Positions 1 through 60,315 of a stretch of DNA of 64,000 nucleotides are shown one piece after another. The notes beneath the pieces are model-generated. The model saw nothing but the letters and a program-made list of their open reading frames with translations. It was not told where the DNA came from and made no database searches. Made by a program: the position numbers and the translations under genes. The stretch lies in NCBI GenBank assembly GCA_965248195.1, contig CBDFIQ010000002.1, forward strand, positions 896,001 through 960,000, in the 5' to 3' direction. Positions within the stretch are counted from its first letter, which is position 1. Every line of letters begins with the position of its first letter. The DNA comes from Longimicrobiales bacterium (GTDB lineage Bacteria; Gemmatimonadota; Gemmatimonadetes; Longimicrobiales; Gaopeijiaceae).

Positions 1-1060
1 CCGGGAAGGCGCCGGCGGCCTTGATCCTGCGTTTGATCTCGCCGTGCAGCCGCTCGAGGCTGTTGGTGGTACGCAGCCGGGGCCAGTGCGCCTCGGGGAA
101 CGCGTAGAACTGCGTCGCTGCCCCGAAGCCCCGCTCCAGGACCTCCACGGCCTCGGGCAGCTCCTTCTTCCAGCGTGCGCCGAACTCGCCCAGGAGCTTC
201 TTCGCCTCGGCGAGTCCGGATGTCTGGAAGATCACCGAGACCTCACGCGCCACGCGCTTGCGTAGGCGGTGGGGGACCCTCGCCCCCACATTACGCTGCA
301 GATGGACCGTACACCTCTGACGGCGTGCCTCGGGCAGGAAGCGGCGGACCGCAGCTGCCAGGCCTGCGTGCTCATCGGCGATCACGAGCTCGACACCGCC
401 GAGGCCGCGGTCCTGGAGTTGCTCGAGGAGCTCCGACCAGCTCTGCTGCGACTCCTCAGCGCCCAGCGTGACGGCCAGGAGCCGTCGGTGACCCTCAGGG
501 CCCACTGCATACGCCACGAGCGCACTCACGTTCTCGACTTTGCGGGCCCAGCGGGCGTCCAAGAACGTGGCGTCCAGGTACAGATAGGGGTGAGGCCCCT
601 CGATCGGCGCACGGCGCAGCCCTTCCACGGCCTCGTCGAGCCGTTTTGCCACACGACTCACCGTCGAGCGCCCAACACGCTCGCCCATCAGCGCCTCGGT
701 GACGTCGCCCATCTTGCGCTGTGACACGCCGCTCACATACGCCTCGACCATCATCTCGTCGAGCTCGGGGCTCCTGCGCTGGTAGCGGCCGATCACGTCG
801 GCCGGCGAACCGTTGTCCCGGCTCCGGGGCATGGCGACCTCGATCTGCCCCAGGCTCGTCAGCAGCCGCCTCAGGTATGTGCCGTTCCTATGGTCCTTCC
901 GGCTTCCCACCCGCTCGAAGCGGCGTGCACCTACCATGGCCTTCAGCTCCTCTTCCAGCACCATCTCGAGCGTCAGCCGGATCGCGCCTTGAAACAGCTC
1001 GCGCAAATCATCGCGTAGCTCGTCTTGCGTGGCCCGACCGATCTCCACAATCTCTTGCAT
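1..1060 (-). CDS. IS256-family (Mutator-type DDE) transposase, 3' end outside window
   Basis: Same sequence as the complete 393-aa ORF at 55411-56592; ATG at 1060. Confidence 0.93.
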   Translation of the reverse strand, partial: MQEIVEIGRATQDELRDDLRELFQGAIRLTLEMVLEEELKAMVGARRFERVGSRKDHRNGTYLRRLLTSLGQIEVAMPRSRDNGSPADVIGRYQRRSPELDEMMVEAYVSGVSQRKMGDVTEALMGERVGRSTVSRVAKRLDEAVEGLRRAPIEGPHPYLYLDATFLDARWARKVENVSALVAYAVGPEGHRRLLAVTLGAEESQQSWSELLEQLQDRGLGGVELVIADEHAGLAAAVRRFLPEARRQRCTVHLQRNVGARVPHRLRKRVAREVSVIFQTSGLAEAKKLLGEFGARWKKELPEAVEVLERGFGAATQFYAFPEAHWPRLRTTNSLERLHGEIKRRIKAAGAFP

Positions 1061-1204
1061 CGGAAGCTCCTCTCCGGTTCCGAGCCTGCTCTGCAGACCC
1101 GGACTCCCGGGTTCATGTGACAGTGAACAACAACAGAGGAGCTTCCGTTTTTCTTTCCCTCCTGTCCAGCTTATCCGCTTTTACACAAATCTAGGGACAC
1201 TACC
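1..1204 (-). mobile_element. IS256-family element, copy 1 (runs off the left edge of the window)
   Basis: Matches 55533-56736 at an offset of 55532; overlapping ORF translations are identical. The shared sequence ends at ...CTAGGGACACTACC (1204). Confidence 0.95.
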
Positions 1205-42353: not shown

Positions 42354-42541
42354 TGGAAATCCATGAGGATTTTGAACTTTCGCATGACCACCAGGATCTC
42401 TACGCTACCCAGCTGAGGCCGCTCCTCGGCGATGCTGCGGCTAGGCTGCGTTGGCGAGCTCCTTGGAATCGAGGAGTGACAGGTTCAGGTAGCGGCGGCT
42501 GCCCCATGCCTCGGTGGTCCTAAGCGCGACCACAGTGATCG

Positions 42542-55029: not shown

Positions 55030-55360
55030 TTTTCTAACGACAGATCCACCCACTTCTCGATTTCGATTTCCCCACACTACGTATGCCCCCAACTCCACCG
55101 ATCCCAAGATATAGTGGGTGAGCTAATGATCTCAATGGGTTATAGTTCGGTGCGCGAGTGGCTAGGTTCGAGCGCCCAGGGATTGACTCCAGATGGATGC
55201 TGTCGGGTTCAATGATGTCCCATAGCGGAGGCGGGGCTTGATGTGTGGAATTGCGGGCGTCATCAATTTCAAAAGACCCCCAATTGGTGACGTAAGATCA
55301 ATGATCAATTTGATTAAACACAGAGGGCCCGACGCTCAATGTGTGTATGAGGGGGAAAAC

Positions 55361-56736
55361 GGTCAAGTCCCGATTTGTGTGTAAAAGCGGAGGAAGCTCC
55401 TCGCCTTCGGCTAGGCTGCTTGGGCGACCTCCTGTTTCTGGAGGAGTGAGAGGTCGAGGTAACGCCGGTCGCCCCAGACGTGTGTGGTCCTGAGTGCGAC
55501 GGCCGTGATGAGCCTGAGGGCGCTGGCCCGGTCCGGGAAGGCGCCGGCGGCCTTGATCCTGCGTTTGATCTCGCCGTGCAGCCGCTCGAGGCTGTTGGTG
55601 GTACGCAGCCGGGGCCAGTGCGCCTCGGGGAACGCGTAGAACTGCGTCGCTGCCCCGAAGCCCCGCTCCAGGACCTCCACGGCCTCGGGCAGCTCCTTCT
55701 TCCAGCGTGCGCCGAACTCGCCCAGGAGCTTCTTCGCCTCGGCGAGTCCGGATGTCTGGAAGATCACCGAGACCTCACGCGCCACGCGCTTGCGTAGGCG
55801 GTGGGGGACCCTCGCCCCCACATTACGCTGCAGATGGACCGTACACCTCTGACGGCGTGCCTCGGGCAGGAAGCGGCGGACCGCAGCTGCCAGGCCTGCG
55901 TGCTCATCGGCGATCACGAGCTCGACACCGCCGAGGCCGCGGTCCTGGAGTTGCTCGAGGAGCTCCGACCAGCTCTGCTGCGACTCCTCAGCGCCCAGCG
56001 TGACGGCCAGGAGCCGTCGGTGACCCTCAGGGCCCACTGCATACGCCACGAGCGCACTCACGTTCTCGACTTTGCGGGCCCAGCGGGCGTCCAAGAACGT
56101 GGCGTCCAGGTACAGATAGGGGTGAGGCCCCTCGATCGGCGCACGGCGCAGCCCTTCCACGGCCTCGTCGAGCCGTTTTGCCACACGACTCACCGTCGAG
56201 CGCCCAACACGCTCGCCCATCAGCGCCTCGGTGACGTCGCCCATCTTGCGCTGTGACACGCCGCTCACATACGCCTCGACCATCATCTCGTCGAGCTCGG
56301 GGCTCCTGCGCTGGTAGCGGCCGATCACGTCGGCCGGCGAACCGTTGTCCCGGCTCCGGGGCATGGCGACCTCGATCTGCCCCAGGCTCGTCAGCAGCCG
56401 CCTCAGGTATGTGCCGTTCCTATGGTCCTTCCGGCTTCCCACCCGCTCGAAGCGGCGTGCACCTACCATGGCCTTCAGCTCCTCTTCCAGCACCATCTCG
56501 AGCGTCAGCCGGATCGCGCCTTGAAACAGCTCGCGCAAATCATCGCGTAGCTCGTCTTGCGTGGCCCGACCGATCTCCACAATCTCTTGCATCGGAAGCT
56601 CCTCTCCGGTTCCGAGCCTGCTCTGCAGACCCGGACTCCCGGGTTCATGTGACAGTGAACAACAACAGAGGAGCTTCCGTTTTTCTTTCCCTCCTGTCCA
56701 GCTTATCCGCTTTTACACAAATCTAGGGACACTACC
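55361..56736 (-). mobile_element. Complete IS256-family element (1376 bp) with imperfect IRs and 8-bp TSD GGGAAAAC
   Basis: Ends read GGTCAAGTCCCGATTTGTGTGTAAAAGCGGA and (reverse complement) GGTAGTGTCCCTAGATTTGTGTAAAAGCGGA. TSD at 55353-55360 and 56737-56744. Confidence 0.96.
55411..56592 (-). CDS. IS256-family transposase
   Basis: RNGTY.R.L.T..G, GVSQRK, YLYLDA, VIADEHAGL, QRCTVHLQRN, RTTNSLER...EIKRR, FP. Confidence 0.96.
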   Translation of the reverse strand: MQEIVEIGRATQDELRDDLRELFQGAIRLTLEMVLEEELKAMVGARRFERVGSRKDHRNGTYLRRLLTSLGQIEVAMPRSRDNGSPADVIGRYQRRSPELDEMMVEAYVSGVSQRKMGDVTEALMGERVGRSTVSRVAKRLDEAVEGLRRAPIEGPHPYLYLDATFLDARWARKVENVSALVAYAVGPEGHRRLLAVTLGAEESQQSWSELLEQLQDRGLGGVELVIADEHAGLAAAVRRFLPEARRQRCTVHLQRNVGARVPHRLRKRVAREVSVIFQTSGLAEAKKLLGEFGARWKKELPEAVEVLERGFGAATQFYAFPEAHWPRLRTTNSLERLHGEIKRRIKAAGAFPDRASALRLITAVALRTTHVWGDRRYLDLSLLQKQEVAQAA

Positions 56737-58502
56737 GGGAAAACATAACATTTGGTCATGCGCGGCTTCGCATTCTTGATCTTAATTCGAGAGCTGACCA
56801 GCCTTTTTTTAATCATGATCGATCTGTTGTAGTCGTATTCAATGGCGAAATATACAACTACAAGGATCTAAAAAAGGATTTACCGGATTATCAGTTCAAA
56901 ACGAGCTGTGACACAGAAGTCATTCTTGCTGCATACCAGAAGTGGGGATTGAAGTGCCCGGAGCACTTCGTGGGCATGTTTTCCTTTGTACTATACGATT
57001 TCAGAAAGAGGCAAGCCTTTGGCGCTCGTGACCGGTTTGGAATTAAGCCCTTTTTCTACACTATTGATGATGGCCAGTTTGTGTTTTGCTCAGAAATCAA
57101 AGGCCTTCTTCCTATCGTTAGGAATTTTCGGCCAAACTATGACGTCATTGTTGATTACCTGTACGAACGTGATTTCGAGAAGAGTCGAGAGACATTCTTT
57201 CGCGATGTCGTTCAGTTGTTGCCCGCTCAATATTTTGTTCTAAACGAAAACGACTTCCATGTAGATCATTACTATAACCTCGAGTGCACAGATAGCGGCG
57301 CAAACATCGATCAGATTGAAGCAGCTTCAACGCTGAGGGAATTGTTAACAAAAAGCGTATCCAGGCGAATTCAGAGTGATGTCCCTGTTGGTCTTTATTT
57401 TAGCGGTGGGATTGATTCAACGGCAATCGGTATTGGTATCAAGGAAGCTTCGCCACTTGCGAAGATGAGATCCTATACCGCTGTTTCCGAAAATGTGCCG
57501 CAAGACCACAAGAATATCATTATGGAAATGGCTAATGAGTTGAATCTGAATAATAGGATGCTTGGGAGTGAACCTGAAAATCCGTCGATGCTATTAAGAA
57601 GGTTGATGTGGCACATGGAGATGCCATTCACTTCTTCGGTGATATGCGACGATATCCTAAACTCAGCAGCCAAGAAAGATGACATTACTGTGGTTATTGA
57701 GGGTCAGGGATCGGATGAATCACAAGCTGGCTACGTGCATTATTTCGTTCCATATCTGATCGATTGTTTGGCAAAGACGGATTTGAGCGCTCTGAGGGAT
57801 TGTGTCAACAATCCTCCACAACACCTAAAACACAAACTGTTTCGTAGCGCGTTGATGCGCAGCCTAGTGGAGATCTTGAGATATTCTCATTTGTACGATC
57901 CCATCAAGAGACTTAATCCGCCAGCCATCCACGAGCTTGTTGGCGAAGAATTGCAGGAGATTTATCTGTCAAAGGAAATGGAGCGTGGACCCAGTGAAGT
58001 ATCGTCTTCACGGCTGGTCAATTATCAACACCATGACATGGGTTCAAAGTTACAGCGTGTGCTTAGGACGAAAGATCGAATTTCCATGTCCTATAGCAGG
58101 GAGCTTAGAGTTCCTTTTCTAGATCATGAACTGGTGGATTTCATGTTTAGTCTGCCTAACCATTTCAAGATCCATAAGGGAAGGCAGAAAGACTTGCTCA
58201 TTCGGGCGCTTCAACCAGAATTGCCGGAGTTGTGTTACTCAATGGGCAAGAATGATCTGTTGAGGGATAAACTGACTTCAAGAGCTCGAACGACTCTTCG
58301 GAAGGACAATATCTTTACCCTATCTTCGGAGCAGGCGGAAGGCCGGAGATTGTTTGCTGACAGCGTGTTTTCTAATCTACCCGAATCTAGTCGGATGAAT
58401 GGTGGTCTATATTGGAGGATTGGTCAGGTTGAGCTGTGGCATCAAATGTTCATCGATCAGCAAACCAGCCTGCATTCTTAGCAGATATAGAATCGTCAAC
58501 AA

Positions 58503-59921: not shown

Positions 59922-60044
59922 AGAACCGCCAGCGTATCAGACTTGGAGCGCTCACCATTGTCGCTATTCAGAGTCCACCGTGAATCTGCATCGTCAGATC
60001 CGTCCATTCCACGATCGGGCAGGGCAGCGACCAGGAACCATGGG

Positions 60045-60195
60045 TGGACAGCCTGAAAAAGAAAGAGGAAGCTTTTTTGGGTGTTCATCATCACAAGAAC
60101 CCGGGAGTCCGGGCCTGCGCGAGTAGGTCCGGAACCGGAAAAGCTTCCTCATGGAGAAGATGGTCGAAGTGGAGCGGGCCACGCAAGATGAGCTG
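60045..60195 (+). pseudogene. Relic of a related IS256 element (5' UTR plus first 15 transposase codons)
   Basis: Homologous to the IS256 leader; MEKMVEVERATQDEL versus MQEIVEIGRATQDEL. Confidence 0.85.
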
Positions 60196-60315
60196 TGGCA
60201 GGCTCCGAGCTTGCGTTCATTGAGCAGCATATGGCCGACCCGATGCACTAACACTACAATGGCGGCGGCGGCGGGCCCCAGGACACCAGTCAGGCAGCAC
60301 CTGTAGACTCGAAGT

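Follow-up and report, generated by a model that had tools for sequence, protein, structure and literature searches.

A conserved fold over the transposase start site, a predicted antisense RNA and a possible right-end partner in an IS256-family insertion sequence

The locus described here raises the question of what a strongly folded leader does for the transposase gene that it precedes, and in which of the possible transcripts it does so. A first-pass annotation of the window (the whole 64,000-nt stretch of DNA that was analysed) had proposed a conserved, covarying RNA structure that sequesters the ribosome-binding site (RBS) of an IS256 transposase. The element concerned is a 1376-bp insertion sequence on the minus strand (55361–56736), which splits, in antisense orientation, an asparagine-synthase (glutamine-hydrolysing) gene of a polysaccharide cluster (55240–58481) and is flanked by an 8-bp target duplication. 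It consists of a left (56706–56736) and a right (55361–55391) terminal inverted repeat, the latter ending in TTGACC, and of an ORF for a 393-aa transposase (55411–56592), all on the minus strand. The transposase is of the Mutator DDE type (Pfam PF00872, E 5.5e-100), which, together with the subterminal TGTAAA of the repeats and target duplications of 8–9 bp, places the element in the IS256 family. The source genome holds 103 full copies that are >99% alike; 56 of them have an exact 8- or 9-bp target duplication and 45 have none. An identical left end is shared by 99 of the 103, indicating a very recent burst, and some copies are nested within others (e.g. C1 near 1472500–1475200 of the source genome). 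Identical elements are present in genomes titled Longimicrobiales, and the plasmid collection yielded no close relative above 60% identity. Further traces are found within the window. A second, identical copy (1–1204, minus strand) is cut by the window start. A 161-bp relic of the left end of a related element (60042–60202, plus strand) retains a −35 box, the leader parts termed A, P2 and P3 below, a degenerate Shine–Dalgarno (SD) sequence and about 17 codons, without terminal repeat or right end, and an isolated right-end remnant of a related element (42415–42539, minus strand) retains a segment of the type called C below. A strong SD-like GGAGGT is located about 20–25 nt ahead of the transposase stop codon (55425–55436, and in many relatives), with no start codon downstream.

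The leader (56593–56679, minus strand) folds into a three-way junction formed by stems P1 and P2 and a long hairpin, P3, with a minimum free energy of −52.5 kcal/mol and a z-score of −6.58; none of 200 shuffles was equally stable. P1 comprises 13 bp between arm A (56667–56679), the anti-SD 5′ strand, and arm B (56593–56605), which carries the SD GAGGAG (56599–56604) and ends at the ATG (56592). The stem proposed in the first-pass annotation, ending at the start codon and hiding GAGGAG, is thus borne out. The same holds for the inner hairpin GTTC..GAAC, which corresponds to P2 (56643–56660), and for the TCTGC/GCAGG hairpin top. P3 (56606–56642) lies directly 5′ of the SD and takes up the bases that had been assigned to a CCCGG-GAGT-CCGGG hairpin, for which the pair probability is below 0.001 in both sequences; this pairing is 89% pairable in a 22-row alignment and is possible only as a transient fold. 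The leader at 1061–1147 is indeed identical, but it does not count as independent evidence because it belongs to one of 103 near-identical copies. Similarly, the stem of the relic folds as claimed (z −7.12), but its matched changes are poor evidence of covariation because this fragment lacks the GGAG core conserved in live elements and has also lost its terminal repeat and right end. A search of Rfam at gathering and E-value thresholds gave no relevant covariance-model match to RNA-OUT or to any other family, in agreement with the suggestion that the motif is not a described RNA. Three features had escaped the earlier reading: the 5′ arm holds a predicted internal promoter, a predicted antisense promoter lies at the start codon, and the right end repeats the sequence of the SD arm.

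Relatives were picked by protein and not by structure. Of the resulting 205 loci, 14 have no leader and six depart from the anchor pattern (three variant anchors, one cut, two with the leader lost); the remaining loci gave 110 distinct leaders and 70 representatives of <90% identity, with 59–100% amino acid identity to the query. Both ends are available in 62 representatives, eight having been dropped. The z-score is below −2 in each of the 70 leaders, with a median of −6.4, although the relatives are not independent of one another and the anchor pattern itself fixes most of arm A by construction. The core of P1 is uninformative on covariation because it is invariant, and its variable ends covary: one pair is A-T in 27, G-C in 18 and C-G in 8 of 61 leaders, and another is C-G in 31 and T-A in 17. 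In P3, two-sided changes at six pairs occur in 13, 3, 15, 0, 24 and 22 of 44 distant leaders, so that five of the six pairs show compensatory changes. P2 is well paired (94.5% of cells), shows no two-sided change in the close group and is missing from several lineages. Hence the RBS-hiding structure itself is confirmed in 70 of 70 representatives with compensatory pairs, the real support from covariation coming from these live relatives and not from the relic; what does not hold is the idea of a single fixed multi-branched motif, since P1 and P3, the hairpin next to the SD, are the only general parts, P2 being confined to certain lineages. Judged by such comparisons, the leader is a real, conserved regulatory module. 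In one relative (L094), the left repeat and the −35 box are separated by an additional GC-rich palindromic insert of 90 nt. For a wider view, we assembled 95 loci, comprising this element and 94 others of the IS256 family, with three from unpublished genomes excluded; 62 gave clear repeats, and 34 differ by >40% in protein (<60% amino acid identity), with two start codons set by eye. Among these 34 distant leaders, 25 lock the RBS beyond shuffles, and the lock is therefore not limited to one IS256 subgroup as had been supposed.

Which transcripts would be locked depends on where the transposase mRNA begins. Arm A contains a hexamer, GAAGCT (56672–56677, minus strand), that may serve as the −10 box of an internal promoter, Pint, with TGGACA (56695–56700, minus strand) as the −35 box and a predicted +1 at about 56665. 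With the alignment anchored on GAAGCT in arm A, conservation of T and G peaks at positions −35 (56/66) and −33 (61/66). The T.G signature is found at a 17-bp spacer in 52 of 62 relatives, as against 8 or fewer at any other spacer from 12 to 22, and the −35 hexamers of the relatives include TGGACA, TCGACA, TTGAGA and TTGACG. A consensus promoter scan calls no promoter here, GAAGCT being a poor −10. Taken together, the sequences point to a weak sigma-70 promoter with its −10 in arm A and a start, at about 56665, just past the anti-SD. Because the −10 box is inside arm A, only read-through RNA would be locked, as in IS10, whose kind of stem over the RBS is present here by computation. Native mRNA from the element's own weak promoter would begin just past the anti-SD and leave the RBS free; RNA from host promoters, or from the first lap of a junction promoter, would include A and fold P1 over the SD. 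Indeed, opening the RBS is calculated to cost 9.4 kcal/mol in the Pint RNA versus 18.2 kcal/mol in the read-through RNA, and the read-through cost is the higher one in 70 of 70 representatives. In the fold model of this copy, the SD is unpaired with a probability of 0.63 in the Pint RNA and 0.0 in the read-through RNA. In the distant set, the −10 is located at A in only 21 of 29 elements (16.5 expected). A conditional lock acting on read-through RNA is, in our judgement, very probable.

A second promoter, convergent with Pint, is predicted within codons 3–12 of the transposase gene (56557–56585, plus strand). It consists of TTGCGT (56557–56562) and CAATCT (56580–56585) with a 17-bp spacer, hidden in the first codons of the transposase. 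Its putative product is an RNA-OUT-like antisense RNA (56592–56688, plus strand; z −6.06) that mirrors the leader fold, with a 13-bp closing stem followed by a U tract. Codon usage is consistent with such a site: Gln12 is encoded by CAA in 60 of 60 cases, compared with 94 of 695 for other Gln codons (66 of the 70 representatives could be anchored, six of which have His at this position). Moreover, an antisense site with its +1 within 5 nt of the start codon is found in 64 of 70 representatives (0.4 expected), and at least five U residues occur within 8 nt after the closing stem in 56 of 67. Among the distant elements, 4 of 34 pass the same strict promoter test. RNA-OUT of IS10 pairs via an unpaired strand that faces the 5′ end of the mRNA, and it ends in the pIN region, as described in the parts of PMC4513863 and PMC5006887 covered. 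Here the antisense RNA turns unpaired exactly opposite the predicted mRNA 5′ end at the Pint +1. At the level of sequence, both hallmarks of the RNA-OUT type are thus found, a conserved convergent promoter and a stem-closed, U-ended RNA over the RBS. The convergent promoter in the first codons would give rise to a mirror RNA of about 95 nt, with its unpaired strand facing the mRNA 5′ end, and this RNA would exert IS10-type multicopy inhibition. For IS256 itself, an antisense RNA is described as lowering transposase in the portions of PMC10266640 covered. We consider it quite probable that the predicted antisense RNA is part of the circuit.

The third component is found at the opposite end of the element. 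A short segment, C (GAGGAGCTTCC, 55392–55402, minus strand), is situated after the stop codon and ahead of the right repeat; it is a copy of the SD arm and complementary to arm A. A GGAGC-type core is present in C of 61 of 62 relatives. Several ordinary roles for C were considered and rejected. A local hairpin with the ORF end is weaker than C:A in 60 of 62 relatives, and a terminator is contradicted by a run of at least five T after the stop codon in just 1 of 62. As a mirror antisense promoter at the right end, judged on the bottom strand by A-11, T-7 and a −35 at 17 bp, C has A-11 in 41 of 62 but the −35 at 17 bp in 1 of 62. Nor does C resemble a plain SD: GGAG is followed by a conserved cytosine, as expected for pairing with arm A but not with the 16S tail. 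By contrast with non-cognate combinations (−23.8 kcal/mol), cognate C:A duplexes reach −26.5 kcal/mol. In edge-disjoint tree pairs, the cognate C:A combination was better in 16, the swapped one in 5 and 9 were tied (p 0.027; 30 pairs counted, one mistranslated pair of 31 being left out), and the control, B:A, gave 16 better, 3 worse and 11 tied. In the C:A core, G.U (31 of 311 cells) outnumbers A.C (4 of 230), although A.C is frequent at the positions that face the two A's. Where C departs from complementarity to arm A, it tends to do so across from the first half of the −10 box, both in the clade and in the distant set, as if an inward promoter were avoided; in the IS256 prototype (L297), the C-type segment matches perfectly opposite the first half of the −10 box.

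A relation between right end and leader also recurs far outside the clade. Across the 34 distant subgroups, pairing of the element's own leader with the 50 nt interior to the right repeat has a mean z of −1.95, compared with 0.07 for a coding control and 0.10 for a flank control. This pairing has p≤0.05 in 17 of 34 subgroups, against 2 of 34 and 2 of 30 in the controls, and the cognate partner ranks first in 16 of 34, where about one would be expected. In this crude whole-end test the present element alone reaches only z −0.8. For the IS256 prototype, which is in the set, the right end pairs with the leader over 12 contiguous bp (z −2.3), its partner being the −10 region and not the anti-SD; in ISRm5, a right-end/leader match was seen by eye. 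At the right ends of L206, L216 and L219, the stop codon is separated from segment C by long GC-rich hairpins that lack a U tract, and these could stabilise or delimit a junction-spanning RNA.

Such complementarity might also arise between DNA sites. The strongest competing explanation, which we regard as unlikely, leaves the lock and the antisense RNA in place and takes C and A for DNA sites, a pair of subterminal repeats to which transposase or a host factor binds, A serving in addition as an autorepression operator over the −10. It would account for the absence of strand preference in C:A pairing (sense stronger in 31 relatives and antisense in 29, and 18 versus 16 in the distant set, so that no strand is fixed) and for the like orientation of A and C relative to their ends, and drifting specificity of the protein would make both sites co-change. 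The IS256 transposase is also said, in work of Hennig and Ziebuhr from 2010, to bind inside the terminal repeats. Yet the paired sequences are entirely different between subgroups, and the right-end partner overlaps the element's own lock (anti-SD) arm in 24 of 34. Moreover, the distances to the ends vary without helical phase (39–58 nt for C and 53–99 nt for A), the duplexes tolerate bulges and internal loops with pairing kept on either side, and the ISCth4 transposase reads bp 7–25 of the repeat (PMC7780238, in the parts covered).

Two further explanations are improbable to a similar degree. In one, C acts through the antisense RNA, either by sponging its 5′ end from the 3′ UTR, resembling the Ssr9/Asr9 pair of ISPpu9 (PMC8450116, in the passages covered), or, on the bottom strand of the circle, by changing the fold of antisense read-through RNA. 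The predicted antisense RNA is conserved and its 5′ end is nearly A, and the antisense duplex C′:A′ is as stable as the sense one. However, C follows A and not B: of the 139 cells in which B and A mispair, 84 retain pairing of C with A (65.8 in permutations) and 22 have C identical to B, and C pairs less well with the complement of B (−22.8 versus −26.5). In addition, the 5′ end of the antisense RNA is locked in its own stem, the U tract would end this RNA before the junction, and the order of transcription disfavours C′ on the bottom strand. In the other, translation plays no role, C:A acting in single-stranded DNA during copy-out replication, or C being the leftover of longer repeats kept alike by template switching. 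C does abut the right repeat and lengthen its helix, the leader folds with DNA parameters too (−26.6), and the matched changes of the relic may resemble template switching; but the stretch from the left repeat to A has no mirror at the right end, and the partner overlaps the RBS-blocking arm in those 24 subgroups. The complementarity also persists in coding sequence where the stop codon lies within the right repeat (L217, L221, L273, L283 and L287), the leader-matching segment there having p≤0.05 in 3 of 5. Least probable of all is a constitutive fold, with the true promoter further upstream and all transposase mRNA locked and merely leaking, as in IS200 (PMC4513863, in the sections covered): it draws on the weak −10 and on hairpins upstream of the predicted start, but sits poorly with a −35 signal that is sharp at 17 bp only and with an antisense RNA whose open strand starts exactly opposite the predicted +1.

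Our preferred reading is that C acts as a key to the lock in RNA that crosses the junction of an excised circle. For copy-out/paste-in elements, the prevailing view is that a junction promoter boosts transposase once the circle has formed. IS256-family elements move via circles, on which the abutted ends form a promoter with a 5–6-bp spacer (PMC7780238, as described in the parts covered). The two halves of such a split promoter are present here: the left end has TAGATT at bases 12–17 (56720–56725, minus strand) as the putative −10, with −10-like hexamers at this place in 61 relatives and the same design in ISCth4, and the right repeat finishes with TTGACC (55361–55366, minus strand) as the putative −35. 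None of 109 left ends has a host −35 box spaced 17 bp from its −10. RNA from the junction promoter includes A, and in the model it is locked on its first lap (SD unpaired 0.0), which creates a paradox; a right-end key would offer a way out of it through RNA folding. On an excised circle or tandem dimer, polymerase would pass the right end, which lacks a U-tract terminator, and transcribe C, the two terminal repeats and then A. The repeats would zip together and, with B still unmade, C would pair A; the RBS would then stay accessible for the time that a ribosome needs to load, and transposase would thus rise only when the substrate for integration is at hand.

When junction RNAs were modelled with 6 nt between the two repeats, C had paired with A ahead of the synthesis of B in 53 of 56. 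Equilibrium favours the lock, B:A being more stable than C:A in 43 of 56 (with a margin of 6.8 kcal/mol for this element), and the key therefore needs a kinetic trap; C reduces the cost of opening the RBS only from 18.2 to 13.9 kcal/mol. Among the 29 distant elements with a lock arm, modelled capture of A at the junction is 0.67 with the cognate right end, 0.30 with foreign and 0.26 with scrambled ones. Spacers between repeat and A form a hairpin in 14 of 22 long versus 7 of 39 short cases, although these represent two lineages and longer segments have more power. No right–left end junction was found in the source genome or the 205 loci, all of them assembled contigs. The element is covered, wholly or in part, by contigs from three RNA runs and from one run whose kind is not recorded. 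No abutted-end joint was found in these four sets, whose contigs carry neither strand nor ends and are therefore silent on expression. From sequences, folds, conservation, covariation and cognate complementarity we infer start sites, RNAs, circles and kinetics. On these grounds, a right-end key that opens the lock in junction-crossing RNA is a tentative proposal with somewhat less than an even chance of being correct, and a circuit of lock, antisense RNA and key controlling translation of the transposase seems, as a whole explanation, rather likely.

Parts of this circuit have counterparts elsewhere. Sequestration of the RBS against outside promoters is known from IS50, and for IS10 it reportedly goes back to an original paper by Davis in 1985. 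Like the present element, IS10 hides its RBS from outside promoters (cited in PMC13181058, in the part covered) and has convergent promoters and a short antisense RNA that lies over the translation start, ends in the sense promoter region and causes multicopy inhibition (PMC5006887, in the passages covered). Unlike it, IS10 is a cut-and-paste element of the IS4 family without a circle, and its antisense RNA is 69 nt long with a 35-nt overlap in the text covered, compared with a predicted three-way junction of about 95 nt and an overlap of about 74 nt here; a right-end partner is absent from the IS10 passages covered. The IS256 prototype and ISCth4 belong to the same family and share the TGTAAA repeats, 8–9-bp duplications and split −35/−10 junction promoter (PMC7780238), and the parts of these accounts covered describe neither an RBS lock nor a right-end complement (PMC7780238, PMC10266640). 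The prototype differs from the present element in that the partner is made up of the −10 region and the inner hairpin, and part of the RBS-pairing arm falls within the terminal repeat. IS200 combines an SD-sequestering stem in its tnpA leader with the antisense RNA art200, but it is an HUH element in which the stem is part of the native mRNA and a terminator guards the left end (PMC4513863, in the sections covered). ISPpu9, of the IS110 family, has an RBS-hiding leader, the upstream antisense RNA Asr9 and a downstream leader-like sequence, but there the sponge for Asr9 is Ssr9, an independent sRNA that acts in trans (PMC8450116, in the passages covered). C, by contrast, measures 11–16 nt, adjoins the repeat and varies together with the anti-SD arm, and no promoter of its own was detected. 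As far as these passages go, Ssr9 is the nearest known logic to the key (PMC8450116). The lock and the antisense RNA are accordingly of known kinds, the lock being undescribed in the portions of IS256-family accounts covered. The right-end key was not found in the literature searched, including the parts of PMC3942029 and PMC2965389 covered; older subscription papers and ISfinder fell largely outside this coverage, so that an earlier remark on internal repeats of IS256 elements is possible.

For the IS256 family more broadly, we put forward as a possibility, held with still more reserve than the key in this element, an RNA switch split between the two ends, in which the lock opens only in junction-crossing RNA, translation senses DNA topology and the antisense RNA is possibly escaped. 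Whatever the mechanism, right ends complementary to their own leaders recur, with differing sequences, in a large and widespread family of insertion sequences, and this is thus a testable and apparently overlooked family feature. If the key proves true, it would represent an undescribed way of timing transposase to the jump and would offer a compact natural design for circularisation-dependent translation.
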